DNA of 64,000 nucleotides from assembly GCA_030430715.1 (NCBI GenBank), contig JAUIJZ010000008.1:1450-65449 (forward strand), written 5' to 3'. Position 1 is the stretch's first letter; every line of letters starts with the position of its first letter. A program made the translations under genes and the position numbers. Source of the DNA: Alphaproteobacteria bacterium (GTDB lineage Bacteria > Pseudomonadota > Alphaproteobacteria > Caulobacterales > Aquidulcibacteraceae). The notes beneath the pieces were generated by a model. That model was not told where the DNA came from, did not search any database, and saw only the letters and a program-made list of their open reading frames with translations. Shown in pieces: positions 5,263 to 25,477 of this stretch.

Positions 5263-5466
5263 GTGTGCGAAGCATGAACTGGGGCGGCAAGAGGTTGCAA
5301 GCCGAGACCGCGCAAAGAGGGAGCGCTGTGCGCCAATTTGGGCTCGCTCCTCCGCTGCGATGCTGTTACTCACGCCATGCAGGGGCGCACACAGCATCGG
5401 CATCGCCGCGGCGATGGGGATTGCGCGCTCCGTGCAGAAAACGAAGGTGAGTGAGGGAGGAAGAGC

Positions 5467-6207: not shown

Positions 6208-6242
6208 GTAAAACAAAGAACGGGCGAGGAGGGCGCGCACGA

Positions 6243-7895: not shown

Positions 7896-8010
7896 CGAGG
7901 CGTCTGGGATCATCGGGGCGATAACAGCACCGCGCGGGCGGCAGAGGCCTCGCACTGGGGCCGGGCGCGGCTTAAATATGCTGTCCGGTGCGCATGAGGG
8001 AGATGAGAAC

Positions 8011-9477
8011 ATGGCGAAGCTTTCTGACGGCCTGCTCTATATCGACGGCAAGTTGCGGCCGGCCGCTGGCGGCCGGACCTATGACGACATCAGCCCGTGG
8101 ACGGGGGAAGTCATCGCCAAGGCCGCGGATGCGACGCCGGAAGATGTGAACGAAGCCATTGCCGCCGCGCGCCGCGCTTTCGATGCGGGCGATTGGACCA
8201 CCAATAAGGAAAAGCGCTTCGAGCTTGTGAAGAAATTCCAGGACTTGCTGCGCGCCAACAAGGAGCGGCTTGGCGATATTGCGCGTCACGAAGCCGGCGC
8301 CGCGACTGGCGCAGTAGGTTTGGCGCATGTCGATAACGCTCTTCAGGGAGGGGACGACTACCTCAAAGTCTTTCCCGATGTCGCGTGGGAAAAGGATTAT
8401 GGCCTGCGCGAGTTTCGCGGCGGCAATACTCATCGTGTCGCCGTGTATGAGCCTGTAGGTGTTGTCGGCGCCATCACGCCTTGGAATGTGCCGCTCTATG
8501 TGCAGATCGGCAAAGTGCATGCCGCTCTGCTCGCCGGTTGCACGGTGATTTTGAAGCCGGCGCCCGATACGCCGCTCATGGGCGCGATCATGGGTGAACT
8601 CGCCCATGAGGCCGGTTTCCCGCCGGGCGTGTTCAACGTGATCACGGCTTCCGATCCGGCGCAGGCTGGCGAAATGCTGGTCACCGATCCGCGCGTCGAT
8701 CTCATCTCGTTCACGGGTTCGACGGGCGTAGGGCGGCGCATCATGGAAAAGGGCGCGCCGACGCTGAAACGCGTTTTCCTCGAATTGGGCGGCAAGTCGG
8801 CGCACATCATCCTGGACGATGCGCCGGACTTTCCGATGACCGTCGCGCGTTCGATGTTGGTATTTCATGCCGGCCAGGGCTGCGCGGTCACATCGCGGCT
8901 TCTGGTGCCAAAGAGCCGCTATCAGGAAGCGGTCGCCATCCTTGAGAAGGCCTATCAAGGCTTCGGCGACAATTGGGGCGACATCGACAATCCGGGACAC
9001 ATCATGGGTCCGGTTGTGTCCAAGAAGCAGCAAGAGCGCGTGCTGGCCTATATCGAGCTTGGCAAGAAGGAAGGCGCGCGGCTGTTGGCCGGCGGCAAGG
9101 CGCGTCCAGACAAGGGCGAAGGCTATTTCATCGAGCCGACTGTGTTCGTCGATGTCGACAACAAGATGCGCATTGCGCAGGAGGAAATTTTCGGCCCGGT
9201 GCTCGTCGTCATTCCTTATGAGGACGATGAGGACGCGATCCGCATCGCCAATGAAAGCGATTATGGGCTTTCGGGCATGGTCACTGGCGGGAAGGAGCGG
9301 GCGATGAAAATCGCTAAGCGCATCCGTACCGGCACGATGAGCGTGAATGGCGGCATGTGCATTGCCGGCGACCTTCCTTTCGGCGGTTACAAGCAAAGCG
9401 GCATCGGGCGCGAGTGGGGCCGTGAGGGCATCGAGGAGTTCCTCGAAACCAAACTTATCGGCGTGGGCGGCGCCTAA
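8011..9477 (+). CDS. Aldehyde dehydrogenase
   Basis: ITPWN, FTGST, LELGGK, GQGC, EEIFGP, PFGGYKQSG. Confidence 0.95.
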   Translation: MAKLSDGLLYIDGKLRPAAGGRTYDDISPWTGEVIAKAADATPEDVNEAIAAARRAFDAGDWTTNKEKRFELVKKFQDLLRANKERLGDIARHEAGAATGAVGLAHVDNALQGGDDYLKVFPDVAWEKDYGLREFRGGNTHRVAVYEPVGVVGAITPWNVPLYVQIGKVHAALLAGCTVILKPAPDTPLMGAIMGELAHEAGFPPGVFNVITASDPAQAGEMLVTDPRVDLISFTGSTGVGRRIMEKGAPTLKRVFLELGGKSAHIILDDAPDFPMTVARSMLVFHAGQGCAVTSRLLVPKSRYQEAVAILEKAYQGFGDNWGDIDNPGHIMGPVVSKKQQERVLAYIELGKKEGARLLAGGKARPDKGEGYFIEPTVFVDVDNKMRIAQEEIFGPVLVVIPYEDDEDAIRIANESDYGLSGMVTGGKERAMKIAKRIRTGTMSVNGGMCIAGDLPFGGYKQSGIGREWGREGIEEFLETKLIGVGGA

Positions 9478-12752: not shown

Positions 12753-13661
12753 TCAGATTTTGGAGATCACATCAGCGCCAATGCGTTCAGCGTTTTCGCA
12801 CCATTCTTTGACGTTATTGCCGCTAACGTGGAGCGCGGCGGAAAGGATGCCGCGATCTTTGAAGCGGCCGATCTTGTCGATCAGGGATGCCGGCGTCCAT
12901 TGCTCGCCGGGCGAGGTGAGGCTGCTGAGGTGAACCTCCGGCATTTTTAGCCCAGTTTTTTCGGCGTGCGCGCGCATGTAGGCGATGCCTTCGTCGATAT
13001 CGAGTTCGCTATTCATAGCTTGCGTGCGCGCTGTCGCGGAAAGCTGTGCGGGGCCGGTGAAGAACGGATACCAGGCGTCGCCGAGTTCAACGGCGCGACG
13101 GATTGCGCGCTTGGAATTGCCGCCGATCAGAATAGGCGGATGCGGACGCTGTAAGGGGCGCGGCATGACGCGATTGCCGAGAGCCTGATAGCCCGTGCCT
13201 TCAAAAGTGAATTCATCTTGCGTCCACGCCGCTTTCAGCGCGCGGATATATTCATCCATGATTTCGTTGCGTTGATCGAAATTGGCGCCGAGCGCCTTGT
13301 ATTCGCCTTTTAAGTAACCTGCGCCGACACCAAGCGAAACGCGGCCTTTGGAGAAGATGTCGAGTGTGGCGACGGAGCGCGCAACGATGAAGGGATTGCG
13401 GTAGGGCAGCACGAGGATGCCGGTTTGCAGGCGCAGGGTTTTGGTCGCAGCCGCGATGAAGGACAGCATGACGAATGGATCTTGCGCGTTGTGCCCACCG
13501 GCATCGAGCCAACGGCCCGTCGGCGCCGGGTGATCGGTGACGCATGCGCCCGCAAAGCCAGCGCGTTCCGCCGCTTGGGAAATCGCGGTCACTGCTTCCG
13601 GCGTCTGGAAATCGTCCGGCGTGCCGGAACGATCGAAGGGCATGGTGACGTTAATTCTCAT
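12753..13661 (-). CDS. LLM-class oxidoreductase, probably F420-dependent (Rv2161c-like)
   Basis: TDHP, DPFVML, LPYRNP, GVGAG...E, IGGNS motifs. Confidence 0.85.
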   Translation of the reverse strand: MRINVTMPFDRSGTPDDFQTPEAVTAISQAAERAGFAGACVTDHPAPTGRWLDAGGHNAQDPFVMLSFIAAATKTLRLQTGILVLPYRNPFIVARSVATLDIFSKGRVSLGVGAGYLKGEYKALGANFDQRNEIMDEYIRALKAAWTQDEFTFEGTGYQALGNRVMPRPLQRPHPPILIGGNSKRAIRRAVELGDAWYPFFTGPAQLSATARTQAMNSELDIDEGIAYMRAHAEKTGLKMPEVHLSSLTSPGEQWTPASLIDKIGRFKDRGILSAALHVSGNNVKEWCENAERIGADVISKI

Positions 13662-13671
13662 CGGATCACCT

Positions 13672-14532
13672 TCAGGCTTTCAGGGTTTCCTCGACGAGCA
13701 CCCACTTACCGGTTTGATTGCGCACCCAGCCGCTCGACGCCCATGTGCCGCCATCGACGGGAAGAGTAGCGCCATTCACATAAGCACTCATGTTCGACGC
13801 GAGAAACACGGCTGCGTCGCCGCATTCGCTATCGATGCCGGCGCGTCCTGCCGGAATGCGGCGCGCGGTGGCGTCGTCTTGGGCGGCGTTCGGCTTGAAC
13901 CATTTGGACTCATCGACGGGCCCGCCAATATTGCCGCGCGTGCCCGGCGTGATTGTGTAGTCCGGCGCTATGGCGTTGACGCGAATACGGTGCTCCGCCA
14001 GCTCGAGCGCCATCGTGCGCGTAAAATTCAGCATGCCGGCCTTACAGGCCGCGTAGGCCGCATAGCCGGGCGCTGCGCGCGAGCCCTCAATACTGGCCAC
14101 ATTGATGATGGCGCCGCCGCGCTTGCCTTTGATGATTTCTGGAACCGCAGCGTGCGTGGCGGCGAACATGCTGACTAGATTGAGGTCTATCAGTTTACGC
14201 CAGCTTTTTTCGGATTGGTCCAAAAAGGGGCGCTGATTAGTGCCGCCAGCATTGTTGACGAGAATATCGAGCCGGCCGAATTCCTTCGCGGCTCGCTCGA
14301 CCGTTGCTCGGATTTTGTCCGTATCGGCAACGTCTGTCGGCGCGGAAAGGGCGCGGCGTCCTAAGGCGCGCACGCGTGCGGCGGTCTCCTCGCAACGCTC
14401 CGGAACAATGTCGGCTATGACGATATCAGCACCGACGGACGCGAAGGCCAGCGCAATGGCGCGCCCGATGCCGCCGCCGCCACCGGTGATAATGGCGACC
14501 TGTTCGGTCAAAGACATATCGGGCGGGGGCAT
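13672..14532 (-). CDS. SDR family oxidoreductase
   Basis: TGGGGGIG, NNAG, YAACK; AGAGG upstream of the start. Confidence 0.92.
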   Translation of the reverse strand: MPPPDMSLTEQVAIITGGGGGIGRAIALAFASVGADIVIADIVPERCEETAARVRALGRRALSAPTDVADTDKIRATVERAAKEFGRLDILVNNAGGTNQRPFLDQSEKSWRKLIDLNLVSMFAATHAAVPEIIKGKRGGAIINVASIEGSRAAPGYAAYAACKAGMLNFTRTMALELAEHRIRVNAIAPDYTITPGTRGNIGGPVDESKWFKPNAAQDDATARRIPAGRAGIDSECGDAAVFLASNMSAYVNGATLPVDGGTWASSGWVRNQTGKWVLVEETLKA

Positions 14533-14644
14533 GTGTCACCTCTGTTCAGGAGGCAGAATAGCGCGGCGACTGAAGGCGTAGCATAGCACGCACGGCTAGA
14601 TACCGCACGGGCGATATCTAGGACCTGTGCGCCAGTGGATCCTG

Positions 14645-15232
14645 CTATGCGCGCAATGCCTCCGGCACATCCGCCAGATCGTTCGGCTCGTCTATGTCTA
14701 GCGCCAAGGTTGGCGAACAGATCGCGGCTATATTGAGTGCGAGGCGTTCAATCTCGGCGCTATGCAAAGCGAAGCTGTTCGCCCCGAATTGAAATTTGAA
14801 ATCGGCTGCGGCTGGGAGAGGCAGCGATAGGGCGTTTGTGCCGGAGCGTTTACGATCGGGTGCGATGGCGCAAACATCGGCTCCAAGCATCGCGAGTGCG
14901 TCTACATCATGGGATGTGAGCTTTGGCAGATCGGCTGCAATGATGATGACGCGGTCGACGCCCGCTTTAGCAGCGACGTGGAGCGCTTGCGTAAGCTCGT
15001 CATTGAGGCCTGCGCCTCGGTCCGCGAGCCGCGGAGTTGAGTGTGGCAAGGCATGGCGCGATGGCCCAAGCACATAGACTTTGTCGACGTGCAATGCTGC
15101 GCTTGTCGTCTCCACCACATGGCGCAGCATGTTCGCAACAAGGCGCAGGCGGGCCGTTTCACTGAGCGCCGGCTGAAGCCTTGTTTTGCAATTTTGGGGC
15201 GCCTTGATTGGCGTAATGGCCCAGCAGGTCAC
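14645..15232 (-). CDS. cofC: 2-phospho-L-lactate/phosphoenolpyruvate guanylyltransferase
   Basis: PIK...KTRL, GLN, ADLP, PDR..GTNAL, FG..SF..H, DID...DL motifs; GTG start; neighbours cofE/cofD. Confidence 0.92.
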   Translation of the reverse strand: MTCWAITPIKAPQNCKTRLQPALSETARLRLVANMLRHVVETTSAALHVDKVYVLGPSRHALPHSTPRLADRGAGLNDELTQALHVAAKAGVDRVIIIAADLPKLTSHDVDALAMLGADVCAIAPDRKRSGTNALSLPLPAAADFKFQFGANSFALHSAEIERLALNIAAICSPTLALDIDEPNDLADVPEALRA

Positions 15233-15525
15233 GACGGCATGGACTTAAGGCCGAGCACAAAGTCCTTGTTCGCTGGCGCAATATTGTTAGCGGCGAACGC
15301 GGCCTCGCTATGTTTGGCGTGCGGATGCGCAAGGTGACTGGGGTGTTCCGCGCGGCCGGCAATGGCGAGTACAGCCATGATTATCTCCCAAGACGCTTCA
15401 AGCATGCGCGCGCGCTAGCCGCAATCGGGCTCGACTGGACAGGTTCGGCTTGTGGCGCCACTGTTTGCCACGGCTGCAGCGGCGGCTGTAATAGGCAATC
15501 CGCTGAGGCGAAAGGGTGCTTTCAG

Positions 15526-16335
15526 ATGCAGCCAGAAGACGCGCCCGCTTCCGGGCCAAGCGTCGTCACCGGCATGAGTGTGACGGTTCTACGTGGGTTG
15601 CCAATGTTTCAAGAGGGCATGAGCGTAGCGCGCGAAATCGCCAAGGCCGCACTGCATGTAGGGTTTAATGTCAACGACGGCGATGTGGTGGTGGTCGCTC
15701 AAAAAATAGTCTCGAAGGTTGAAGGGCGAAAAGTGCGTCTGAGTGATGTGGAGGCTGGCGCGGAGGCAGAGACGCTTGCGCAGCGCACTGGCCGGCCTGC
15801 CGCTCTGATGCAATTGATGCGTGATGAAAGCGCTGAGATTATGCGCGCTACGCCACAAGTGACGATCACGCGTCAACGCACCGGTCATGTTGCAGCAAAT
15901 GCGGGCATAGATGCGTCCAATATAGAAGGCGGCGAAGATGACGCCGTTTTGCTTTGGCCGCGCGATGCGGACGCTAGCGCGCGGGCCATCCGTGCTGAGC
16001 TAAGCGCAGCGTCAGGTGCGGCGCCTGCTGTGTTGATCGCCGACAGTTTGGGCCGCGCATGGCGCATGGGCACAATTGGCACGGCGATTGGCTGCGCTGG
16101 ATTGCAAGTACTGCACGATCGCTGCGGCGAGGCTGACCTCTTTGGCAGGGCGTTGCGCGCCACGTTGGTCGGTGTTGCGGACTCGATTGCGGCGGTGGCG
16201 GTCTTGGCCATGGGCGAGGGGGCGGAGGGCACGCCGGTTGCGATTGTGCGCGGGGTGCAGCGTTATGTGACGCGCGAGGATGGAAACGGCGCGGTTATGG
16301 CTCTGCGTCCGCTGGATCAGGATCTATTCCGGTGA
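15526..16335 (+). CDS. cofE: Coenzyme F420-0:L-glutamate ligase (stand-alone, no nitroreductase domain)
   Basis: VAQKIVSKVEGR, ANAGIDASN, DSLGRAWR, GEGAEGTP, ending RPLDQDLFR. Confidence 0.92.
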   Translation: MQPEDAPASGPSVVTGMSVTVLRGLPMFQEGMSVAREIAKAALHVGFNVNDGDVVVVAQKIVSKVEGRKVRLSDVEAGAEAETLAQRTGRPAALMQLMRDESAEIMRATPQVTITRQRTGHVAANAGIDASNIEGGEDDAVLLWPRDADASARAIRAELSAASGAAPAVLIADSLGRAWRMGTIGTAIGCAGLQVLHDRCGEADLFGRALRATLVGVADSIAAVAVLAMGEGAEGTPVAIVRGVQRYVTREDGNGAVMALRPLDQDLFR

Positions 16336-17294
16336 TGGAAGGGCATGTGCTGGCGCTCTGCGGCGGCGTGGGCGGCGCCAAGTTCGCGGCGGGGCTGGCG
16401 GCAGTGCTGCCCCCGGAGCAGCTAACCATCGTCGTCAATACGGGCGATGATTTCGAACATATCGGGCTCAGCATTTCGCCAGACATTGACACCGTCTTGT
16501 ACGCCTTGTCCGGGCTTTCCGATGCTGTGCGCGGCTGGGGAGTCGCTGATGAGAGTTGGCGCTGCATGGAGATGCTTGAGCGCTTGGGTGAGCCGCAATG
16601 GTTCATGCTTGGCGATCGCGATCTCGCCATGCATTTGGCGCGCACCCATCGCTTGCGCGCCGGAGAGACTTTGTCGGGGGTCACATCAGATCTCGCGCTT
16701 CGCCTAGGTATTGCAGCGGCGATCGCACCCATGAGCGACGACCGTGTGCGCACCGAGGTTGACACCGAGCAGTGTGCGTTGCCGTTTCAACGCTATTTCG
16801 TCGCTGAGCAGTGTAAGCCCGTGGCGCGCGCCATTCGCTACGTGGGTGCAGAGGTGGCGCGACCATCACCGGCTTTTTCCGCTGCCTTGACGCGGCGTGA
16901 CCTCGCCGCCGTGATGATCTGTCCGTCCAATCCCTATCTCAGCATAGACCCGATCTTGGCGGTTCCTGGCGTGCGTGCGCAGTTGGAGCGTGTGCGTGCG
17001 CCGCGGGTGGCGGTCTCGCCGATTATCGCCGGCAAGGCGCTCAAAGGGCCTGCGGCCAAGCTCATGGGGGAGCTTGGGGTGGAGCCGGATGTAGTTTCTG
17101 TTGCGCGCCATTATCGTGAGCTGATCGACGTGCTGATCATTGATGAGTCCGACGCTGCGCGTGCTGGCGATGTCGAGGCCGTTGGCGTAAAGGCGGTGAC
17201 AGCGCCCGCCATCATGCGTACGGCGGCTGATCGTGCTGCGCTCGCACGCGAAGCATTGGCGGCGGCGCGCCAGTCGAAGGGAGTGGCCGTTTGA
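16335..17294 (+). CDS. cofD: 2-phospho-L-lactate transferase
   Basis: GGVGGAKF, NTGDDF, SPDIDT, LGDRDLA, PSNPYLSIDPIL, KGPA; overlaps cofE stop. Confidence 0.95.
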   Translation: MEGHVLALCGGVGGAKFAAGLAAVLPPEQLTIVVNTGDDFEHIGLSISPDIDTVLYALSGLSDAVRGWGVADESWRCMEMLERLGEPQWFMLGDRDLAMHLARTHRLRAGETLSGVTSDLALRLGIAAAIAPMSDDRVRTEVDTEQCALPFQRYFVAEQCKPVARAIRYVGAEVARPSPAFSAALTRRDLAAVMICPSNPYLSIDPILAVPGVRAQLERVRAPRVAVSPIIAGKALKGPAAKLMGELGVEPDVVSVARHYRELIDVLIIDESDAARAGDVEAVGVKAVTAPAIMRTAADRAALAREALAAARQSKGVAV

Positions 17295-19630
17295 AACTGG
17301 AGGCGGATACAAGTCTACGGCGTTGGCTGCTTGAGGCGCCGACCGAGACCTTGCTCACGGAAGCGCGCGCGCGTCGTGATGGGCGTGGTCCAATGCGGAC
17401 GACCTATTCGCGAAAAGTGTTTATCCCGCTGACGCAGCTTTGCGCCGATGTTTGCCATTATTGCACCTTTGCGAAGGCGCCGCGCAAATTGGCCGCCACG
17501 TATCTGACGCCCGACCAAGCGCTGGACATTGCGCGGCGTGGCGCGGCGATGGGATGCAAGGAAGCGTTGTTTACGCTCGGCGATGCGCCTGAGCGCCGTT
17601 ATGCGGTCGCGCGGGATGCACTGACCGAAATGGGCTTTGAGCGCACGATCGATTATGTCGCGCATGTCGCGGGGCTGGTGCTCAAGGAAACGGGACTTCT
17701 ACCGCACATCAATGCCGGCGTTCTGAGTGAGGACGATTATCGCCAGCTGCGCGGTGTTTCGGCATCGGCGGGGCTCATGCTGGAAAGCGCGTCGGACAGG
17801 CTGTGCGAACGCGGTGGACCGCATTTCGGTTCGCCGGACAAGCGCCCCGCTGTGCGAATGGAGTCGCTCGCGGCGGCGGGCGTGGTGCGCATGCCGGTCA
17901 CAAGCGGTGTACTGATTGGTATCGGTGAGACTGAAGAAGAGCGGTTGGATGCGCTGATTGCGCTGCGCGATCTGCATCGCCGTTACGGCCATCTACAAGA
18001 AGTGATCGTGCAGAACTTCCTGCCTAAGGCTGGCACGCGCATGGAGCATGCGTCGCCGCCGCCGGAAGACGCTTTTTTGCGGGCGGTCGCCTGGGCGCGC
18101 ATCGTTCTCGATGACGATGTAGCCGTGCAAGCGCCGCCAAACTTGAATATGGCGCGGCTCGCACGGTTGCTTGATGCTGGCATCGACGATTGGGGCGGCG
18201 TTTCGCCTGTGACCGCCGATCATGTCAATCCTGAAGCGCCCTGGCCGGAAGTTGAACGGCTCGCCGCAGTTTGCGCACGTGCGGGCCGGCCATTGACCGA
18301 GCGCCTTACTATCTATCCGAGGTTTGCTCTCGCCTCTGAAATTTGGCTCGACGCGGCCGTGCGCCCTGCTGTGTTGGCGCTAAGTGATGGCGAGGGGCTT
18401 GGGCGGGAAGGCGATTGGAGCCCCGGCGTGGCCGCGCCAGCGTTGGGTTCGTCACAAAAACCGTTGCCGCACGCGCCGGGTATAATGGGCGACGCTGCTA
18501 TTGAGCGTAATCTTGCGCGCGCGCAGAACGGGATGGAGCTTTCGGAAGCCGATATCGTGCGGTTGTTCGAGAGCCGCGGTGCGGCGGCGGAAGCGATTGT
18601 GCGCGCGGCGGATGCATTGCGCGCCGAGGTGAAGGGCGACGCGGTGACGTATGTTGTCAACCGCAACATCAACTATACCAATATATGTAGCTATAAGTGT
18701 TCCTTCTGTGCGTTCTCCAAAACGTCGGCGAAAGCCGGTCATCGCGATACGCCTTACGTGCTCGACTATGAGGAGGTCGCTGCGCGCACGCTTGAGGCGC
18801 GGGCGCGTGGCTCGACGGAGGTGTGCCTGCAGGGCGGTATTCATCCAAGTTATACGGGGGAGACCTATCTCGGCATTCTTGAGTCGGTGAAGCGTGCCTG
18901 TCCGGACATGCATGTACACGCCTTCTCGCCGCTTGAGGTGAGCTCTGGCGCCGCCACGTTGAAGATGCCGGTACGCGATTTCCTGAAACGCTTGAAGGAG
19001 GCGGGGCTCGGCTCGTTGCCGGGCACGGCGGCGGAAATTCTCGATGACGAGGTGCGGGCGCTTATCTGCCCCGATAAATTATCTACCCAAGAATGGCTCA
19101 GCGTCGTGAAGACTGCGCATGAGGTTGGCTTGGCGACGACGGCGACAATCATGTTCGGCCACGTAGAGACTTACACACATTGGGCGCGGCATTTGCTCGC
19201 TATTCGCCGCCTGCAATTGCAAACGGGTGGGTTCACGGAGTTCGTACCGCTACCGTTCGTACATATGGAAGCCCCGATGTTTCATCGCGGAAAGGCGCGG
19301 CGAGGGCCAACATGGCGCGAGACGGTGCTGATGCATGCGGTGAGCCGTTTGGTACTACATGGTGCGATCGATTCTATTCAGTGTTCTTGGGTCAAGCTTG
19401 GCGTGGACGGGGCCGCAGCCTGTCTTGCGGCAGGCGTGAACGATCTTGGCGGCGTGCTCATGAATGAGAGCATCAGCCGCGCGGCGGGCGCTGCGCATGG
19501 GCAAGAAGTCAATGTTGAAGACCTCGCTGCGGCAGCGCGTGCGGCTGGCCGTACGCTGCGCCAGCGTACTACGCTCTATGGCCTGATCGATGAAGGCGGG
19601 TCGCAGGCTCTGGCTCAGGCGCCCGCCTGA
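17291..19630 (+). CDS. fbiC: Bifunctional FO synthase (fused CofG-CofH)
   Basis: Two radical-SAM motifs (CADVCHYC, CSYKCSFC), DDWGGVSPVT.D.VNPE.PWP, SLPGTAAEIL; TTG start overlaps cofD stop. Confidence 0.95.
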   Translation: MKLEADTSLRRWLLEAPTETLLTEARARRDGRGPMRTTYSRKVFIPLTQLCADVCHYCTFAKAPRKLAATYLTPDQALDIARRGAAMGCKEALFTLGDAPERRYAVARDALTEMGFERTIDYVAHVAGLVLKETGLLPHINAGVLSEDDYRQLRGVSASAGLMLESASDRLCERGGPHFGSPDKRPAVRMESLAAAGVVRMPVTSGVLIGIGETEEERLDALIALRDLHRRYGHLQEVIVQNFLPKAGTRMEHASPPPEDAFLRAVAWARIVLDDDVAVQAPPNLNMARLARLLDAGIDDWGGVSPVTADHVNPEAPWPEVERLAAVCARAGRPLTERLTIYPRFALASEIWLDAAVRPAVLALSDGEGLGREGDWSPGVAAPALGSSQKPLPHAPGIMGDAAIERNLARAQNGMELSEADIVRLFESRGAAAEAIVRAADALRAEVKGDAVTYVVNRNINYTNICSYKCSFCAFSKTSAKAGHRDTPYVLDYEEVAARTLEARARGSTEVCLQGGIHPSYTGETYLGILESVKRACPDMHVHAFSPLEVSSGAATLKMPVRDFLKRLKEAGLGSLPGTAAEILDDEVRALICPDKLSTQEWLSVVKTAHEVGLATTATIMFGHVETYTHWARHLLAIRRLQLQTGGFTEFVPLPFVHMEAPMFHRGKARRGPTWRETVLMHAVSRLVLHGAIDSIQCSWVKLGVDGAAACLAAGVNDLGGVLMNESISRAAGAAHGQEVNVEDLAAAARAAGRTLRQRTTLYGLIDEGGSQALAQAPA

Positions 19631-19635
19631 TGCCA

Positions 19636-19663
19636 TTGACGCAAAGTGTCACCGCTCTAGTCT
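19636..19663 (+). promoter_or_regulatory. Putative sigma70-type promoter with an overlapping inverted repeat
   Basis: TTGACG-N16-TAGTCT; TGAC-N7-GTCA dyad at 19637-19651. Confidence 0.4.
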
Positions 19664-19686
19664 GAAGACAGAGAGGGAGATGTCGG

Positions 19687-20805
19687 ATGCGTGTTCAGCC
19701 TGCTGCATTCCTGCGCACGACATTGCCTTTGGATTTCTCGAAACTGAGCGAGTACGACAGCGGGCGATATCACTCGATCTGGTTGCCGGATCATATGGTG
19801 AGTTTCTGGCCGGATTCGATCTGGAGTTCGGAGTTCACGGATCTCGCTTCGGTATCTCCATCGCCACACCGGCATCTCGATGGATTGGCCATAGCCGCCG
19901 CCGTTTCGCAGCAAACGAAAAATGTGCCGATCGCGATGAGTGTGGTCGATACGGTGCGGCGCCATCCTTCGCTCTTGGCTCAGACGGCGCTGACGATCGA
20001 TCATCTCGCCAAGGGGCGTTTCATTCTTGGCCTCGGCAGCGGCGAAACAGAAAACACCGTTCCCTATGGTTTTGACTTCAACAAGCCGGTGGGGCGGTTT
20101 GAAGAAGCGCTTAAAGTGATCCGCTTACTTTGGGATACGCAGGGGCCAATCGATTTCGAAGGCAAGTTTTTCAAGCTGAGCCACGCGCGCCTCGATACCG
20201 AACCCTATCAAGGCAAATTTCCCAGTATTTGGATCGGCGCTAGCGGGCCGCGCATGCTTGGCATTACTGGCCGCTATGCCGATGGCTGGTGGCCGGCGGG
20301 CGCGTGGACGCCGGAGGATTTTGCCGCCAAGCTGAAAGTGGTGCGCGAGTCAGCTGAGCGCGCTGGGCGCGACCCCATGGCGATCACGCCTGCTTACATC
20401 ATGATGTGCCTAATTGGTGATGAGACGGAGGTGGCGGAGATGCTCGAGGCGCCGCTGATCAAAGCGGGCATCCTCATGCACCTTGAGGCAAAGCTATTGA
20501 ATGAACGCGGCTTCGATCATCCGCTTGGTAATGATTGGCGTGGCTACCAAGATATAGATCCTGGTGCGCTGACCCGCGAACGCATCTTGGACATGCTTGG
20601 CAAAGTCGATGTGAGGGCGATCACTTCGATCGTGCCGACCGGCGCGCCGAAAGAGATTGCGAGGATCGTGAAGGGCTATGTGGATGCCGGCCTGCGGGTG
20701 CCGAAAATTCTCGATTACGGTGGAATGGCGGGCATGAAGTATGGCGCGCGTTCGGCAGAGAAAGTGCGCCAGACCGAAGACGAACTGCTGAAATTGTGCG
20801 CTTGA
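19687..20805 (+). CDS. LLM-class oxidoreductase, Rv2951c (phthiodiolone ketoreductase)-like, probably F420-dependent
   Basis: WLPDH, RRHP, GLGSGETENTVPYG, KPVGRFEEAL, GPRML..TGRYADGW, GRDPMAITPA. Confidence 0.8.
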   Translation: MRVQPAAFLRTTLPLDFSKLSEYDSGRYHSIWLPDHMVSFWPDSIWSSEFTDLASVSPSPHRHLDGLAIAAAVSQQTKNVPIAMSVVDTVRRHPSLLAQTALTIDHLAKGRFILGLGSGETENTVPYGFDFNKPVGRFEEALKVIRLLWDTQGPIDFEGKFFKLSHARLDTEPYQGKFPSIWIGASGPRMLGITGRYADGWWPAGAWTPEDFAAKLKVVRESAERAGRDPMAITPAYIMMCLIGDETEVAEMLEAPLIKAGILMHLEAKLLNERGFDHPLGNDWRGYQDIDPGALTRERILDMLGKVDVRAITSIVPTGAPKEIARIVKGYVDAGLRVPKILDYGGMAGMKYGARSAEKVRQTEDELLKLCA

Positions 20806-20809
20806 GCCT

Positions 20810-21973
20810 ATGAGTAGATCTATTCTCGACGCGGACGCGTTGCTCGCGGCGGCTGAGGCCGAAACTGGGCTAAGCGATTATGGCGACCCGACGTTCAAGG
20901 AGCGCTTCGCTATCGCGGCTCAGCAGATTTCGGCATGTGGCATGGATGAGTTCGGGCAGCGCAAGGGCGCAGAGGTTTGCCGTTGGCTTCTGACGTCGCG
21001 CCTCAACTTCTTTGAAGATCATAAGCGCTATCACCTCGACGACGAAAAGATCGAAAAGCCGCTTTTCGCGACCGGAGAGCCTCGTTCGGGAACGACGCTG
21101 CTGCATGCGTTGCTGTCCGTGGATCCGAACGCGCGTTCGCTGCGCTTTTGGGAGGTGATGTACCCTTCGCCACCGTCTGGCATGGCCGCAGATGATGATC
21201 CGCGACGCGCGCAAGCAGACAATGATTGGCGCGAGATCAATGCGAAAATACCCCTTTGGCTGCATAGCCATCCGTACAATGACATGCTCGGCAATGGCTT
21301 GCCCGAAGACGAGCGCACTTGGGCGATGGATTTTCGTGTAATGACGCCGACCGCGTGGTGGCGCGTGCCGATGGGCATGAATTTCGCGGGGCTACCTTCT
21401 GACCCGCGCGCGCAGTATCGGTTGCATAAGATGATGCTGCAGCATTGCCAGCATACGCGTCCGAAGAAGTATTGGGTGCTGAAGGGGTTTCATAACGCGC
21501 GCCTCAAAGCGCTGTTCGAAACCTATCCGGATGCGGCAATCATATGGACGCACCGCGATCCCATACAAACTATTGCCTCGCGCATCGCCATGGCGGCGGA
21601 GATCACGGACGGTCTCGTTGGGCATGTGGACTGGAGGGCGATCGCTAAAGGTCAGCTCGCTTATGCTCGCAACAGCATAAAAACGACGATGGAAAGCCCT
21701 TGCGTGAACGATGCGCGCATCCACCATGTGCGCTATCCGGACTTCATCGCCGATCCGGTGAGAACAATACGCGATTTTTACGAGACGTATGGCGTGCCAT
21801 TCAATAACGAGATGGCGCGCAAGATGCAGGATTATCTCGCCAATAATAGAGGCGATCGCTACGGCAAGTTCGTCTATTCGGCCGATATGATCGGCGAGGA
21901 TCTGGACAAGCTGAACGACGAGTTCGCGCCATTCCGTGAACGGTTCGGGTTGGAGATTGAGAAGCGCAAATAG
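20810..21973 (+). CDS. Sulfotransferase (PAPS-dependent, mycobacterial-type)
   Basis: GEPRSGTTLLH 5'-PSB loop, WVLK, HRDP 3'-PB motif. Confidence 0.9.
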   Translation: MSRSILDADALLAAAEAETGLSDYGDPTFKERFAIAAQQISACGMDEFGQRKGAEVCRWLLTSRLNFFEDHKRYHLDDEKIEKPLFATGEPRSGTTLLHALLSVDPNARSLRFWEVMYPSPPSGMAADDDPRRAQADNDWREINAKIPLWLHSHPYNDMLGNGLPEDERTWAMDFRVMTPTAWWRVPMGMNFAGLPSDPRAQYRLHKMMLQHCQHTRPKKYWVLKGFHNARLKALFETYPDAAIIWTHRDPIQTIASRIAMAAEITDGLVGHVDWRAIAKGQLAYARNSIKTTMESPCVNDARIHHVRYPDFIADPVRTIRDFYETYGVPFNNEMARKMQDYLANNRGDRYGKFVYSADMIGEDLDKLNDEFAPFRERFGLEIEKRK

Positions 21974-21982
21974 GGGGCGCTG

Positions 21983-22792
21983 ATGCACGAGCGGATTTCG
22001 ATCAATAGCATCAGCTTTTTGGGTTCGCCGCTCACGGCGTTCGCTGAGATTTGCCGCGACTTGCAGCCCAAGCGCGTGAGTTTTCTGAATAGCGAGCTTG
22101 ACGATGCGGGCAGCGTGCGGCGGTTGCTCGACGAAGGCCGGTATCGGTTTGAGACATGTACGCATGTCTTCATGCCGGGTCAGCACCTCGATCCGAATGA
22201 GGAAACCTGGGCCGAACCGCGCGCGCGACTTAACAGCTTGATTGATCGTGTCGCAGCGCTCGGCGGAAACTCCATCTACATGCTGACGGGTGGCCACGGT
22301 AGTCTAACCTGGGAGCAAGCGGCGGAAACCTTCGCGGCGATAATTGCGCCCTGCGCGTTGCGCGCGAGGGAGGCCGGGGTTCAGCTGCTCATTGAGAATG
22401 CGTCGGTTCTGTTCGCCGACAACCATATCGCCCACAATCTGCGCGATCTCGCAACGCTGGCGGAGATGGCAGATATTGGCGTCAATGTTGATATCTACGG
22501 CATTTGGATGGAGGCGGATCTCAAGGCGTCTCTGGAGCGTCTCATGCCGCGTTGCCATCTCATTCAGGCCAGCGATTATGTTTATGGAGACCGCTCGTTG
22601 CCGTGCCGCGCGGTGATCGGCGATGGCGCCGTGCCCTGGCCGCGCATTTTGGACTGGGTGTTGTCGGCCGGCTATGCGGGGGCGTTCGATCTTGAGCTTA
22701 TGGGGCCCCGAATTGAACGAGAGGGGCGCGTGGCGGCGAACCGGAGAAGCGCGGAGCGGTTAAGCGAAATGTTGCACAAGCTAGGCGCTTAA
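21983..22792 (+). CDS. Sugar-phosphate isomerase/epimerase-like TIM-barrel protein
   Basis: LLIEN, NVDIY, SD....DR....GDG..PW, DLEL pattern of the xylose-isomerase-like fold. Confidence 0.8.
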   Translation: MHERISINSISFLGSPLTAFAEICRDLQPKRVSFLNSELDDAGSVRRLLDEGRYRFETCTHVFMPGQHLDPNEETWAEPRARLNSLIDRVAALGGNSIYMLTGGHGSLTWEQAAETFAAIIAPCALRAREAGVQLLIENASVLFADNHIAHNLRDLATLAEMADIGVNVDIYGIWMEADLKASLERLMPRCHLIQASDYVYGDRSLPCRAVIGDGAVPWPRILDWVLSAGYAGAFDLELMGPRIEREGRVAANRRSAERLSEMLHKLGA

Positions 22793-22810
22793 AGGAGCGG
22801 AGAGACGCAA

Positions 22811-24040
22811 ATGGCTTTTGGAGCAGCTGCGGAGGATGCGGCGCTGCGCGCGGCCTGGAACGATTTCTGCGACAAGCTGCGCGCTGCTGGCGAGCAGGCG
22901 TTCAAAGACGCCAATCCGGCGAACCCGCTGCAGCGTGCTGATGCGTTCCGCTTTCTGACGCAAAATCTGGGGCAGGCCTTCGATTTGGGGCTTGAAACCA
23001 AGGATACGCGTTATCCTCTGTTGCACGCCTTTTGCTCGCCAACACGCAAGCTTGGCGGAGACGCTGGAGACTTCAGCTATCAGCAAGCCTGGATCGACGG
23101 CGCATCGCGTTACAGGCTCTTCGGCGATCGCGGCACGGCGCGCTTTCTCAATGTGACTGTGCAGGGGCCGCGGCCTGAGAAAATACCGAATACGGACTGG
23201 CCAAGCTTGCATGAGCCGTTCGGCGATATTCCAGAAGCAAATCTGTTCGCGCATCAACTGAAGACGGAGACGGACGGACGCTTCGAAATTTTTATAGGCG
23301 GGCCGGAGCGGGGGGCGAATTGGCTGCCGACAACACCAGGGTCGCGTAAGCTATTCATTCGCCAGGGTTTCGACGCCTGGAAGGAAACGCCGGCGCGGAT
23401 GCAGATTGAGCGGCTGGATATGGAGGCGCCGAAACCGGCGCCGACTCCGGGCGACATGATCGGCGCGATGGATTGGGCGGGGACCTTCGTCACCGGCCTT
23501 ATGCGCGATTGGCCCGAGCATCCGCACGCTTATAGCGGCGGCGTCGTCGATCCGGGGCGACCCAACATCTTTCCGCAAATAGAGGCGACGGGAGCTGACC
23601 AAAAGCGAGGCCGCGCCATCGCGCATATGTGCTGGACGCTCCGGCCAGATGAAGCGTTGATCATTGAGTTCAATGAACATGATGCGTTTTGGATGCTTAC
23701 CAATTCGGGCGCGTTCTTCAACAGCATGGATTATCTGTATCGCCAGGTCAGCTACACGCCGGCGCGCACAAAGACAGATAGCGACGGGATGGTGCGGCTC
23801 ATCCTCGCTCACGAAGATCCCGGCTGTCACAATTGGCTGGACACGCAGGGTTTTGCGCAGGGCAATATCACCTACCGCGAATTGCTGAGCCCGGGAAAAG
23901 CGACGCTGTCGACGAGACTTGTGAAGCGGACGGAGCTTGACGAGGCTTTGCCGGCCGATACGGCTAAAGTCACGCCGGAAGAGCGCCGCGCGCAAATGCT
24001 GGCTCGGTTCTATGGAGTTTTGCGGCGCTACCCGCTCTAG
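22811..24040 (+). CDS. DUF1214-like conserved hypothetical protein
   Basis: KLGGDAGDFSYQQA.IDG...YR..G.RG, L.PDEALIIE, DPG..NWLDT.G pattern of proteins often found beside sulfotransferases. Confidence 0.7.
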   Translation: MAFGAAAEDAALRAAWNDFCDKLRAAGEQAFKDANPANPLQRADAFRFLTQNLGQAFDLGLETKDTRYPLLHAFCSPTRKLGGDAGDFSYQQAWIDGASRYRLFGDRGTARFLNVTVQGPRPEKIPNTDWPSLHEPFGDIPEANLFAHQLKTETDGRFEIFIGGPERGANWLPTTPGSRKLFIRQGFDAWKETPARMQIERLDMEAPKPAPTPGDMIGAMDWAGTFVTGLMRDWPEHPHAYSGGVVDPGRPNIFPQIEATGADQKRGRAIAHMCWTLRPDEALIIEFNEHDAFWMLTNSGAFFNSMDYLYRQVSYTPARTKTDSDGMVRLILAHEDPGCHNWLDTQGFAQGNITYRELLSPGKATLSTRLVKRTELDEALPADTAKVTPEERRAQMLARFYGVLRRYPL

Positions 24041-24723
24041 TCACCGCGTTTCAAATCATCGGTTTGATTTTCAGCCCAGTCTTTGACTTCTGCAGGCCGA
24101 AAGCGCGCGCTTGGCGAGTTTCCTGAAGCGGTACGCAAATCGTAGCCGATAGGATCAACGCCGTCTTCAAGCTGAATTCCAAAGGCGGTGACGGCCCAAC
24201 TCAGCATCACATAATGGCCGATAGTGAAAACGAGATCCATGATCTGCTGGCGATCGAAATGTGCGGATAGCGCGTTCCAGGTACTATCGGAAAGGCGCGA
24301 GGCATCGATGAACTCATCGACAGCATTAAGCACGGCGCGGTCAGCCTCGTTCCAGATCGCAGCGTTTGCGCCATCTTTTATGGCGGCGATCTCTTCCAAG
24401 CTCATGCCTAAATTGACGCAATAGCCGACATGGTAGTGCCATTCGTAGTCGCATTTCAGTCGCCATGAGATGCGGATGACGACAAGTTCTTTGACGCGCC
24501 CCGATAGCGTTGAGTCGATGAGCAGGTGCTTGCCGAATATATTGTAGGCAGTCGCTAGCTTCGGGTGCTGTGCGAGGGTCATGACAATGTTGGTCTTTGA
24601 TCCATCGCGCCATGAATCCGGCTCGCCCCAAAACGCGAAAACTTCGCGAGCGGGATTGTCCCAATCTTCGGGCGGCAGCGTCGGGATGCGAGGCGTGTCT
24701 TTTCTCATGTCTTTCGTCGCCAT
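24037..24723 (-). CDS. Carboxymuconolactone decarboxylase/AhpD-like protein (paralog 1)
   Basis: LAQHP.L, KELVVIRISW...YEWHYH, MDLVFTIG.Y. Confidence 0.85.
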   Translation of the reverse strand: MATKDMRKDTPRIPTLPPEDWDNPAREVFAFWGEPDSWRDGSKTNIVMTLAQHPKLATAYNIFGKHLLIDSTLSGRVKELVVIRISWRLKCDYEWHYHVGYCVNLGMSLEEIAAIKDGANAAIWNEADRAVLNAVDEFIDASRLSDSTWNALSAHFDRQQIMDLVFTIGHYVMLSWAVTAFGIQLEDGVDPIGYDLRTASGNSPSARFRPAEVKDWAENQTDDLKRGD

Positions 24724-24793
24724 TCATTAGGCTGGTGCTTGCATCGATGCGGCAAGGTCGTAGATGATGGCCGTTGAAACAAGGGAGAATTTC

Positions 24794-25477
24794 ATGGCCT
24801 CGGACAAAGAAGGCGAAGAGCGGAAGGTTAAGCGTAAGAAGCCCCGGATTCCGCCGCTGCCGCGGGAAGAGTTCACCGACGACGCGCGTGAGGTGTTTGC
24901 GTTCTGGGGCGAGCCCAATGCTTGGGAGGAGGGCTCGAAGACGAATGTCATCAACACCATGGGCAACCATCCGGCGCTTGGAAAGGTGTACAACGTCTGG
25001 GGCATGCATTTCCTGATGCATAATTCGATGCACATTAGGCAGCTTGAGCTCGTTGTGTTGCGCGTCGCGTGGCGGGTGAAGTCGGAATACGAGTGGCACA
25101 ACCATGTCGGCTACGCCATGAACGCGGGCATCACGCTTGAGGAGATTGAAGCGATCAAACTCAAGCCGGCGGATGGGCCGTGGGATGAATTGGACAAAGC
25201 GGTTCTCGTCTCCGTTGACGAGCTGATTGGCAAGGGACGCATCAGCGACAAAACCTGGAAGATCCTGACCAAGCATTATGACAAGCGTCAGATGATGGAT
25301 TTGCTGTTCACCATCGGTCACTACGTGATGACGAGTTGGGCTTTGTCATCGATGGGTGTCGAGATGGAATCGCCGGACCCGATTGGCTTCGATCTCAGAA
25401 CGGCTTCCGGGCGTATTCCTGGAAAGACTTATAAGCCGGGCGAAGTCGAAGATTGGATCAAGACTCGCGGCTACTAA
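24794..25477 (+). CDS. Carboxymuconolactone decarboxylase/AhpD-like protein (paralog 2)
   Basis: MGNHP.L, ELVVLRVAW...YEWHNH, MDLLFTIGHY; GGAG before ATG 24794. Confidence 0.85.
   Translation: MASDKEGEERKVKRKKPRIPPLPREEFTDDAREVFAFWGEPNAWEEGSKTNVINTMGNHPALGKVYNVWGMHFLMHNSMHIRQLELVVLRVAWRVKSEYEWHNHVGYAMNAGITLEEIEAIKLKPADGPWDELDKAVLVSVDELIGKGRISDKTWKILTKHYDKRQMMDLLFTIGHYVMTSWALSSMGVEMESPDPIGFDLRTASGRIPGKTYKPGEVEDWIKTRGY

Follow-up and report, generated by a model that had tools for sequence, protein, structure and literature searches.

A conserved four-gene cassette with a probable F420-dependent oxidoreductase and a Stf-type sulfotransferase

Oxidoreductases encoded with derivatising transferases

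In M. tuberculosis, the products of the cyp128-stf3 operon act in sequence on menaquinone, with Cyp128 hydroxylating it and Stf3 sulfating it to give sulfomenaquinone S881. A comparable arrangement, in which an oxidoreductase would make a hydroxyl group and an Stf-family enzyme encoded in the same operon would sulfate it, may be present in a 64,000-nucleotide stretch of DNA from an alphaproteobacterium (contig JAUIJZ010000008.1; hereafter the window). Here the oxidoreductase is an F420-type LLM enzyme rather than a P450 hydroxylase. Moreover, cyp128-stf3 has no TIM-barrel or DUF1214 partner, and it yields a known lipid of the envelope.

A second parallel, drawn on function, comes from PDIM synthesis, where fPKR (Rv2951c) reduces phthiodiolone with F420H2 and the hydroxyl so formed is O-methylated by Rv2952 (PMC8498797). 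The shared logic would be that an LLM-class F420H2 ketoreductase makes a lipid hydroxyl, which is derivatised by a transferase encoded nearby. However, Rv2952 is a SAM methyltransferase, whereas the cassette encodes a PAPS sulfotransferase and two extra proteins (a TIM barrel and a DUF1214-like protein), and the Rv2951c-Rv2952 system is found in a few pathogenic mycobacteria, whereas the cassette is found in four phyla. No methyltransferase gene adjoins the inspected mycobacterial LLM paralogues of 36-38% identity.

The third comparison is with Stf1 (Rv3529c; PDB 2zq5) and M. avium Stf9 (PDB 2z6v), which share their family and PAPS loops with the cassette enzyme but only about 30% identity with the sulfotransferase in the window. 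Rv3529c, Rv3530c (“possible oxidoreductase”) and Rv3531c (“hypothetical protein”) have been grouped among cholesterol catabolic genes (PMC6429209). The combination of oxidoreductase, sulfotransferase and DUF1214-like protein is a recurrent pattern in paralogous loci, but the redox partner at the stf1 locus is an SDR without a tie to F420, in contrast to the LLM of the cassette. The original prediction, made without a search, knew of no described pathway of this composition, and a literature search found no account of the four-gene unit.

Composition and conservation of the cassette

The cassette consists of four open reading frames at positions 19687-24040, all on the + strand, with intergenic gaps of 4, 9 and 18 nt and with 56 nt between the end of fbiC and the first gene. 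The coordinates thus agree with the four co-oriented genes predicted directly after fbiC. The predicted composition is also borne out, since all four proteins have Pfam matches above the gathering score.

The first gene (19687-20805) encodes an LLM-class oxidoreductase of 372 aa that matches Bac_luciferase (2.5e-50). Its ten best NCBIfam matches all belong to F420 or Mer families, but it scores below every curated cut-off and is therefore a member of no defined subfamily. Its best PDB relatives (Mer, fHMAD, Adf and FGD) are all F420 enzymes, and the closest characterised relatives perform hydride chemistry on C-O or C=N. Weaker matches include SsuD, SfnG and RutA. Residues D35-H36, W41 and G117-x-G119-E120 are invariant across 22 orthologues.

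The second gene (20810-21973) encodes a protein of 387 aa that matches Sulfotransfer_3 (3.1e-27) and aligns over its full length with PDB 2z6v (6.7e-35) and 2zq5 (1.1e-30). The RSGTT and HRDP motifs on which the PAPS assignment was first based are intact, as GEPRSGTT (residues 89-96) and THRDP...S (residues 247-257), and all 22 orthologues compared keep GEPRSGTT and HRDP...S unchanged. By motif and alignment, the protein is a PAPS-type O-sulfotransferase of the mycobacterial Stf1/Stf9 family. It has more than 2000 homologues, of which the best 120 are at least 68% identical.

The third gene (21983-22792) encodes a xylose-isomerase-like TIM-barrel protein of 269 aa (AP_endonuc_2, 7.5e-19; model pLDDT 95.8). 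Foldseek matched the model to 7vpf and SMc04130, which are uncharacterised “sugar isomerases” (TM 0.8), and next to ketose 3-epimerases, UlaE, AsbF and IolI, placing it among enolising epimerases, isomerases and dehydratases. The protein keeps E138, D/E170 and E238; the canonical metal-binding His, present at that site in 7vpf and 3qc0, is replaced by an invariant Gln (Q195).

The fourth gene (22811-24040) encodes a cytoplasmic DUF1214-like protein of 409 aa. Its match to DUF1214 (1.3e-8, 35.7 bits, cut-off 25) covers residues 92-182 only, and the protein also matches (1.3e-45) PDB 6ans, an uncharacterised Burkholderia cenocepacia protein with no assigned function. The two share 31% identity and a two-domain fold (Foldseek TM 0.76-0.85; model pLDDT 85). 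Foldseek found no characterised structural relative, with VPA0106/VPA0735 reaching a TM of about 0.4. Many charged residues are invariant down to paralogues of 26% identity. Of 12 mycobacterial loci, 7 have a DUF1214-like paralogue beside a sulfotransferase paralogue, as do 10 of 13 loci from the class of the window; this pairing recurs even among paralogues that are 25-30% identical, and also in genomes without FbiC. The gene neighbourhoods thus show that DUF1214-like proteins repeatedly accompany Stf-type sulfotransferases, in this cassette and beyond it.

Co-occurrence of the four genes in other genomes had been set beforehand as a test of the prediction. All four were found in the same order and on the same strand in 59 of 80 loci, each from a different species. 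In most of the remaining 21, the contig is truncated or the TIM-barrel or DUF1214 gene alone is absent; the TIM-barrel gene is absent from six of the 80 loci, and some loci have neither gene. In 74 of the 77 loci that could be judged, an LLM orthologue (60-76% identity) immediately precedes the sulfotransferase gene, and the LLM stop overlaps the sulfotransferase start in the called genes of L001, L003, L087, L088 and L089. The host range takes in Alpha-, Gamma- and Deltaproteobacteria, Verrucomicrobiota, Acidimicrobiia and many Mycobacterium species, with cassette proteins 42-76% identical to those in the window. Gene order across these genomes indicates that the four genes form a real conserved operon and not a chance neighbourhood.

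The F420 connection

Upstream of the cassette lies a cofE-cofD-fbiC string for F420 biosynthesis (15310-19630, + strand), with 4-nt overlaps between the genes. The string scores above cut-off for TIGR01916 (240 bits, cut-off 181) and TIGR01819 (286 bits, cut-off 257), and fbiC itself (17291-19630, + strand) for NF006687 CofGH (1091 bits, cut-off 1018). Divergent from cofE is a cofC-SDR-LLM string (12753-15232, − strand; Pfam CofC, adh_short and Bac_luciferase), whose LLM scores 241 bits against the TIGR03619 cut-off of 167. In six loci, orthologues of its SDR and LLM pair (62-74% identity) are found no more than 10 kb from the cassette, and in L001 the pair adjoins cofC. This string forms a further F420-island module that is frequently linked to the cassette.

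The 56-nt spacer that separates fbiC from the LLM gene (19631-19686, + strand) is a candidate promoter, containing TTGACG-N16-TAGTCT and a GGGAG Shine-Dalgarno sequence by reading of the letters. However, a scan for consensus sites revealed nothing sigma-70-like in the spacer, and L021, the only other locus in which fbiC and the LLM gene meet in this way, does not share its sequence, leaving the proposal that the cassette has its own promoter unconfirmed. The site scan found no terminator-like site 3′ of fbiC, so transcription could equally well continue into the cassette from cofE-cofD-fbiC.

Evidence that the cassette is tied to F420 came from its hosts. FbiC is encoded in 45 of 46 non-mycobacterial carrier genomes, against a background of 45 of 301 genomes (15%) in the window's own class, making it very likely that the LLM is F420-dependent. 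The converse does not hold: a sulfotransferase orthologue occurs in only 1 of the 301 class genomes, and the cassette in only 1 of the 45 that encode FbiC, indicating a niche use of F420. The claim that the cassette is packaged with its cofactor pathway holds in the window and in the 6 loci out of 80 that have F420 genes within 10 kb, none of them actinobacterial, but fails as a general property. F420 genes adjoin the cassette in the window and in L005, L008/L088, L009, L015, L021, L022 and L027; the mycobacterial cassette sits between ino1 and a GntR gene plus leuS, a region unrelated to F420 genes.

Possible chemistry of the cassette

The genome of the window encodes an F420-dependent glucose-6-phosphate dehydrogenase (FGD; 474 bits, cut-off 420) and an APS kinase domain (232 bits) within a CysNC-like ORF of 699 aa, and is thus predicted to be able to supply both F420H2 and PAPS. 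No Fno was found in this genome. Recurrent neighbours of the cassette include a KstD-like FAD enzyme, ACAD, ECH, MaoC, P450, Rieske oxygenase, thiolase, TetR/GntR and a TonB receptor, and they suggest a hydrophobic substrate (lipid-, steroid- or alicyclic-like). The inspected loci share no exporter or envelope-lipid gene beside the cassette. Given the catabolic neighbours, a catabolic or detoxifying role fits better than production of a sulfated end product.

The reading preferred here, which is held tentatively, is a horizontally mobile operon that would act on one conserved small carbonyl or alcohol substrate, first reduced by the LLM and then sulfated, with the other two proteins assisting. 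The LLM would convert a keto group to a hydroxyl with F420H2 from FGD, and the translationally coupled sulfotransferase would sulfate the new hydroxyl with PAPS from the CysNC-like APS kinase. Before or after these two reactions, the TIM barrel may abstract a proton beside the carbonyl, in an isomerisation, epimerisation or elimination. The DUF1214-like protein may be a dedicated partner of the sulfotransferase that handles substrate or product, or processes the sulfate ester. Reduction of a ketone before sulfation of the alcohol is plausible; what we infer is which way the redox step runs, how the steps are ordered, what kind of substrate is used, and what the TIM barrel and DUF1214-like protein do. 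The original reduce-then-sulfate reading, which proposed a lipid or xenobiotic as substrate, gave the latter two proteins no role, and the present model assigns them vague ones.

A serious rival, although on the unlikely side, is a catabolic route with sulfate as a leaving group. An unactivated hydroxyl would be sulfated, the TIM barrel, the DUF1214-like protein or both would eliminate the sulfate to leave an alkene or enone, and the LLM would reduce this product or a nearby carbonyl with F420H2. The net effect would be reductive removal of a hydroxyl in the breakdown of lipid-, steroid- or alicyclic-like compounds. Activation followed by elimination has precedents in the CurM sulfotransferase domain and in the phosphorylation-elimination of 25-hydroxysteroids in Sterolibacterium. 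Many loci have a catabolic context consistent with this model, including L089 (P450, ChsH2/Ltp2-like, FadD and FadE), L087 (Rieske oxygenase, ACAD and ECH), and the window and six others with a KstD-like enzyme. The fold neighbours of the TIM barrel include the dehydratase AsbF and other enolising enzymes, the invariant charged residues of the DUF1214-like protein would suit an enzyme or a sulfate-binding site, and a paralogous sulfotransferase adjoins a DUF7064 protein in L088. However, PAPS is a costly activator for bulk catabolic flux, and lyase activity is known neither for DUF1214 proteins nor for this TIM subgroup. Moreover, the loci that lack the TIM barrel, or both it and the DUF1214 gene, indicate that elimination is not obligatory for the LLM-sulfotransferase core.

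The reductive direction of the preferred reading can itself be questioned. fHMAD, Adf and FGD are LLM enzymes that oxidise their substrates, so the direction of their relative in the cassette cannot be read from sequence. The LLM might, as fHMAD and Adf do, dehydrogenate an alcohol with reduction of F420 and pass the ketone to the enolising TIM barrel, while the sulfotransferase acts on another hydroxyl of the same molecule. The TIM fold class requires a carbonyl beside the abstracted proton, and extra F420-reducing enzymes would be useful in a genome without Fno. This account is nevertheless improbable: FGD would already provide F420H2, and the tight coupling of the LLM and sulfotransferase genes suggests consecutive steps at one position.

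It is very unlikely that the LLM is instead an FMN-dependent monooxygenase that hydroxylates a substrate for sulfation, following the logic of Cyp128-Stf3 with a flavin enzyme. The superfamily is rich in FMN monooxygenases, the weaker matches to SsuD, SfnG and RutA are in line with such a role, and the LLM falls below all F420 subfamily cut-offs; yet its top matches are all F420 families, the cassette has no conserved flavin reductase gene, and FbiC is enriched in carriers. Hardly credible, finally, is modification of F420 or a precursor (for example, sulfation of the ribityl chain or 8-hydroxyl), which would explain why the cassette directly follows fbiC in the window and L021 and adjoins cof genes in several loci, but which is at odds with the scarcity of nearby F420 genes, the near-absence of the cassette from FbiC-positive class genomes, the unrelated mycobacterial site and the sulfotransferase-DUF1214 pairs in genomes without FbiC.

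In keeping with the preferred reading, other Stf-type paralogues in the genome of the window and in mycobacteria also adjoin alcohol or carbonyl oxidoreductases. One such paralogue, on C25, overlaps a Zn-ADH gene, and another, in L130, lies beside an LLM paralogue.

Layout and conservation of the cassette

The cassette follows three F420 genes on the plus strand, cofE (15310-16335), cofD (16332-17294) and fbiC (17291-19630), with 4-nt overlaps between neighbours. After a 56-nt spacer come the LLM gene (19687-20805, +; Pfam Bac_luciferase, PF00296, 172 bits against a cut-off of 27.9), the sulfotransferase gene (20810-21973, +; Sulfotransfer_3, PF13469, 96.7 bits against 27), the TIM-barrel gene (21983-22792, +; AP_endonuc_2, 68.8 bits against 31.1) and the DUF1214-like gene (22811-24040, +; DUF1214, PF06742, 35.7 bits against 25), separated by gaps of 4, 9 and 18 nt. 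These coordinates, gaps and matches above the Pfam gathering scores, together with the sulfotransferase motifs, bear out the four-gene layout and family identities of the original prediction. The F420 genes of the window pass the curated NCBIfam cut-offs. Divergent from cofE, cofC (14645-15232) heads a co-oriented string on the minus strand (12753-15232) that continues with an SDR gene (13672-14532) and a second LLM gene of the TIGR03619 F420 type (12753-13661; 241 bits against a cut-off of 167). Orthologous SDR and LLM pairs, with 62-74% identity, accompany the cassette at no more than 10 kb in six loci of other genomes (L008, L009, L015, L017, L020 and L023), and one adjoins cofC in L001, a Phenylobacterium isolate; the pair resembles a second conserved module within the F420 island.

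The cassette had also been credited with a promoter of its own. A consensus scan of the 56-nt spacer between fbiC and the LLM gene found no promoter, and a terminator scan downstream of fbiC found no terminator. The spacer does contain TTGACG-N16-TAGTCT and a GGGAG ribosome-binding site, with no motif in common with the spacer of L021, the sole other locus with an fbiC-LLM junction. With the consensus scan empty and the spacer motif unshared, a separate promoter is not established.

Among the more than 2000 homologues of the sulfotransferase in the protein collection, each of the top 120 has 68% identity or more, and the same string of LLM, sulfotransferase, TIM-barrel and DUF1214-like genes surrounds several of them. 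Two orthologue-specific peptide patterns, run against a single genome from each of 185,579 species, returned 435 stretches encoding a relative, and synteny was counted by tblastn with the window's proteins in the best 80 of these. Represented among the 80 are Alpha-, Gamma- and Deltaproteobacteria/Myxococcota, Verrucomicrobiota, Acidimicrobiia, Williamsia and about 30 Mycobacterium/Mycolicibacterium species. All four genes are present, with order and strand unchanged, in 59 of the 80, so that the four-gene set expected from the window is recovered widely as a collinear unit. A contig end truncates an otherwise consistent cassette in four more loci; five are without a co-oriented adjacent DUF1214 gene, six lack only the TIM-barrel gene, and four lack both the TIM-barrel and the DUF1214 gene. 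The sulfotransferase gene is directly preceded by the LLM gene in 74 of 77 judgeable loci. Identity to the window's proteins in the tblastn loci is 60-76% for the LLM protein, 62-72% for the sulfotransferase, 41-58% for the TIM barrel and 52-71% for the DUF1214-like protein, and no other flanking gene was found to be conserved to a comparable degree. These counts rule out chance adjacency of the four genes.

In a tree of the sulfotransferase, the Mycobacteriales form one well-supported clade, and sequences from Verrucomicrobiota, Alphaproteobacteria and Gammaproteobacteria are interleaved; this interleaving indicates that the cassette has been transferred horizontally more than once outside the actinobacteria. 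A tblastn search of 72,556 plasmids found no match to the sulfotransferase at E <= 1e-40. In slow-growing mycobacteria, the cassette lies away from F420 genes, with ino1, a PadR-like gene and ponA to one side of it and a GntR gene and leuS to the other. The cassette is rare: a single genome in the 301-genome sample of the window's class has it, as do about 435 of the 185,579 species scanned (~0.2%). It therefore offers no general explanation of F420 in Proteobacteria.

The cassette proteins and their paralogues

The luciferase-like TIM-barrel fold (PF00296) of the LLM protein was confirmed. Its score falls below the cut-off of all 25 listed NCBIfam families, curated F420-specific LLM subfamilies (TIGR03619, TIGR03560, TIGR03554 and others) among them, the best being TIGR03619 with 118 bits against 166.9; because every one of these cut-offs is missed, the protein belongs to a separate, undefined subfamily. 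The best matches are to F420 subfamilies in NCBIfam and to Mer, fHMAD, Adf and F420-dependent glucose-6-phosphate dehydrogenase (FGD) in the PDB. A pairwise BLASTP alignment with the genome's own FGD starts at residue 43 and omits an upstream HSIWLPDH...W stretch, which by eye resembles DSVWISDHFQPW of FGD; from this resemblance, we infer that His36 is the equivalent of the catalytic His of FGD. No methyltransferase gene lies beside the mycobacterial LLM paralogues with 36-38% identity.

Alignments of the sulfotransferase with the structures of mycobacterial Stf9 (2z6v) and Stf1 (2zq5) span the whole protein, and its PAPS motifs align with those of 2z6v. Both the 5'-phosphosulfate loop (PxxGTT; GEPRSGTT, residues 89-96) and the 3'-phosphate motif (RDP...S; HRDPIQTIAS, residues 248-257, within THRDPIQTIAS) are present, and 22 orthologues all keep R92, G94, T95, T96, H248, R249, D250, P251 and S257 unchanged. 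The protein is thus predicted to be a PAPS-dependent sulfotransferase of the Stf1/Stf9 type. We know of no acceptor for either Stf9 or Stf1.

The model of the TIM barrel (pLDDT 95.8) is closest by Foldseek to the uncharacterised “sugar isomerases” 7vpf and SMc04130, followed by ketose 3-epimerases, UlaE, AsbF and IolI; TM-scores are about 0.8 to 7vpf, 3ju2 and the ketose 3-epimerases. Ketose 3-epimerases, UlaE, AsbF and IolI are metal-site enzymes that abstract a proton beside a carbonyl. The canonical Glu-Asp-His-Glu metal site is not complete in the cassette protein. Three acidic ligands are kept (E138, D/E170 and E238), whereas the residue that is His in 7vpf and 3qc0 is Gln195 in all 27 of 27 cassette-type sequences; we take these to be the four ligand positions from the motif spacing of ketose 3-epimerases.

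DUF1214 usually lies C-terminal to DUF1254. In the cassette protein, the DUF1214 match is limited to residues 92-182, and Pfam gave no match to DUF1254, so that the two-domain architecture of VPA0735 was not encountered. Its model (pLDDT 85) has TM-scores of 0.76-0.85 to 6ans, the structure of an uncharacterised Burkholderia cenocepacia DUF1214-like protein, versus about 0.4 to the Vibrio DUF1254/DUF1214 proteins VPA0106 and VPA0735. Since DUF1254 is missing and the similarity to 6ans is far higher, the modelled protein represents the separate 6ANS-type branch. Foldseek matched the model to no characterised structure, and the fold gives no function. Cupins, Cry toxins and SIDT1 were disregarded as relatives because of TM-scores below 0.25.

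The association between Stf-type sulfotransferases and DUF1214-like proteins extends beyond the cassette. A sulfotransferase paralogue adjoins a DUF1214-like paralogue in 7 of 12 loci in four mycobacterial genomes, and in 10 of 13 loci in the 301-genome sample of the window's class, where only two of the seven genomes holding these loci encode FbiC. The window's own genome carries four further Stf-type paralogues with about 25% identity, each beside a redox or VOC gene: one is overlapped by 4 nt by a Zn-alcohol dehydrogenase gene (contig C25:11458-13865), one belongs to a string of Abhydrolase_10, VOC, DUF1214-like and sulfotransferase genes (C133:58-4460), one is followed by a VOC gene with a convergent GMC oxidoreductase gene (C170:60-3041), and one lies near an aldo-keto reductase gene (C159:29241-32317). 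In L130, a locus from another genome, an LLM paralogue with 38% identity adjoins another sulfotransferase. On the 5.8-Mb contig of locus L087, a paralogous TIM-barrel and DUF1214-like pair is encoded with an SDR and a glyoxalase-fold protein (5366-8673, minus strand), divergent from and adjoining a full cassette, which shows that the TIM-barrel and DUF1214-like proteins can combine with other redox partners. From the pattern of these paralogue loci, the general unit is an oxidoreductase, an Stf-type sulfotransferase and a DUF1214-like protein, and the window's cassette is its F420-specific version. The Stf-type partner provides the first functional context for the DUF1214-like family to which 6ans belongs. 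In M. tuberculosis, Rv3531c, Rv3530c and stf1 are listed together among the cholesterol catabolic genes (PMC6429209); because these putative relatives of the pair lie in the cholesterol cluster, what the pair does may be relevant to the metabolism of sterols or lipids. Separately, a second sulfotransferase with 27% identity adjoins a DUF7064 protein in locus L088 (6419-8633, minus strand), where the two genes diverge from the cassette and have fno-cofC-fbiC next to them, and the same pair is found in L035.

F420 association and cosubstrate supply

FbiC/CofGH is encoded in 45 of 46 non-mycobacterial genomes that carry the cassette; the sole exception is a 1.8-Mb bin that was entered via a 4.4-kb contig. 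In an even sample of 301 genomes of the window's class, 45 (15%) encode FbiC/CofGH, as do 39 of the 256 high-quality ones, and a sulfotransferase orthologue was found only in the window's own genome. Even allowing for kinship of the carriers, the association of the cassette with FbiC is near-obligate. Given this association, and because the best LLM matches are all to F420 families, F420 is the likely cofactor of the LLM protein. F420 biosynthesis is fairly common in the window's class, yet the cassette occurs in one sampled genome only.

Physical linkage is less general. The cassette was originally described as packaged with its cofactor pathway, and this holds for the window, for L005, a 682-kb contig on which cofE-cofD-cofC-fbiC-fno directly follow the cassette string, and for six members of the 80-locus set, none of them actinobacterial; it does not hold for the remainder of the 80. 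In L001, cofC lies 6 kb downstream of the string.

The window's genome (3.24 Mb, 98.8% complete) encodes an FGD (TIGR03554, 474 bits against a cut-off of 420; contig C86:5019-5495 region). Fno was not found there, either as a TIGR01915 match or by tblastn when two Fno sequences of related loci served as queries. Since FGD is present and Fno was not found, glucose-6-phosphate rather than NADPH would reduce F420 in this organism. An APS_kinase domain (232 bits) lies in a 699-aa CysNC-like ORF on contig C57; with FGD and APS kinase both encoded, the genome can supply both F420H2 and PAPS.

Candidate reaction sequences and gene context

The best-supported reading, although held at somewhat below even odds, is that the LLM protein would reduce a keto group with F420H2, that the coupled sulfotransferase would sulfate the new hydroxyl with PAPS, that the TIM barrel would carry out enolisation chemistry on the same molecule, and that the DUF1214-like protein would act as the partner of the sulfotransferase. 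The parts of the cassette come from known superfamilies, and its logic has precedents. One is Cyp128-Stf3. Another is the ketoreductase fPKR, Rv2951c, followed by Rv2952 (PMC8498797).

The chief alternative is that sulfate serves as a leaving group in catabolic deoxygenation. This agrees with the catabolic gene context and gives the TIM barrel and the DUF1214-like protein a task, but it is weakened by the existence of cassette loci without the TIM-barrel or DUF1214-like proteins, and we regard it as rather unlikely, at about one chance in four. An elaboration of this idea is less probable again and should be read as speculative: the Stf-type and 6ANS-type proteins may form a hitherto unrecognised two-component unit, in which PAPS sulfation activates an alcohol and the partner, with the Gln-type TIM barrel, removes or displaces the sulfate. 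With the F420H2-dependent LLM protein, this could be a new aerobic route of reductive deoxygenation or rearrangement for lipid- or steroid-like compounds, and would rank with the first physiological roles of F420 to be defined in Proteobacteria and Verrucomicrobiota. Lower odds than for the leaving-group role are also given to an LLM protein that runs in the oxidative direction, or that is an FMN monooxygenase. Modification of F420 itself by the cassette has low odds because the cassette is usually away from F420 genes.

The original prediction knew of no pathway with the composition on which the reduce-then-sulfate reading is built, and a search of the accessible literature found no such description and no paper combining F420 with this sulfotransferase cassette. 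A major F420 review of 2021 nowhere mentions a sulfotransferase, and states that no F420-dependent enzyme has been experimentally studied in bacteria outside the Actinobacteria (PMC8498797). The cassette, which would join F420 redox chemistry to PAPS sulfation, is sharply defined, highly conserved and limited to F420 makers, and its presence in culturable Proteobacteria and non-tuberculous mycobacteria gives direct experimental access to one of the uses of F420 in these bacteria.

The neighbours of the cassette vary by lineage and are mostly catabolic or regulatory; no conserved exporter or envelope-lipid gene was found near the cassette loci. KstD-like FAD enzymes are encoded in the window (6069-7895, +) and, in six other loci, no more than 10 kb from the cassette. 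The window's protein (608 aa; 589 bits with NF009478, which has a cut-off of 789) is nearest to 3-ketosteroid-delta-1-dehydrogenase and 4-oxocyclohexanecarboxylate dehydrogenases, and its gene sits among those for a CoA-transferase, an aldehyde dehydrogenase, an acyl-CoA synthetase and an enoyl-CoA hydratase, surroundings that hint at cyclic-ketone catabolism. The other neighbours encode acyl-CoA dehydrogenases, enoyl-CoA and MaoC hydratases, P450s, Rieske oxygenases, acyl-CoA synthetases, thiolase/ChsH2-like pairs and SnoaL-like proteins, as well as TauD together with TetR, GntR and a TonB-dependent receptor. In the window, the cassette is followed by a head-to-head pair of CMD/AhpD-like genes (24037-25477), the first of which converges on the DUF1214-like gene with a 4-nt overlap. 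Distant homologues of CMD (30% identity) immediately precede the cassette in the Halieaceae loci L047 and L054, and an Nramp gene lies downstream of it in both L024 and the window.
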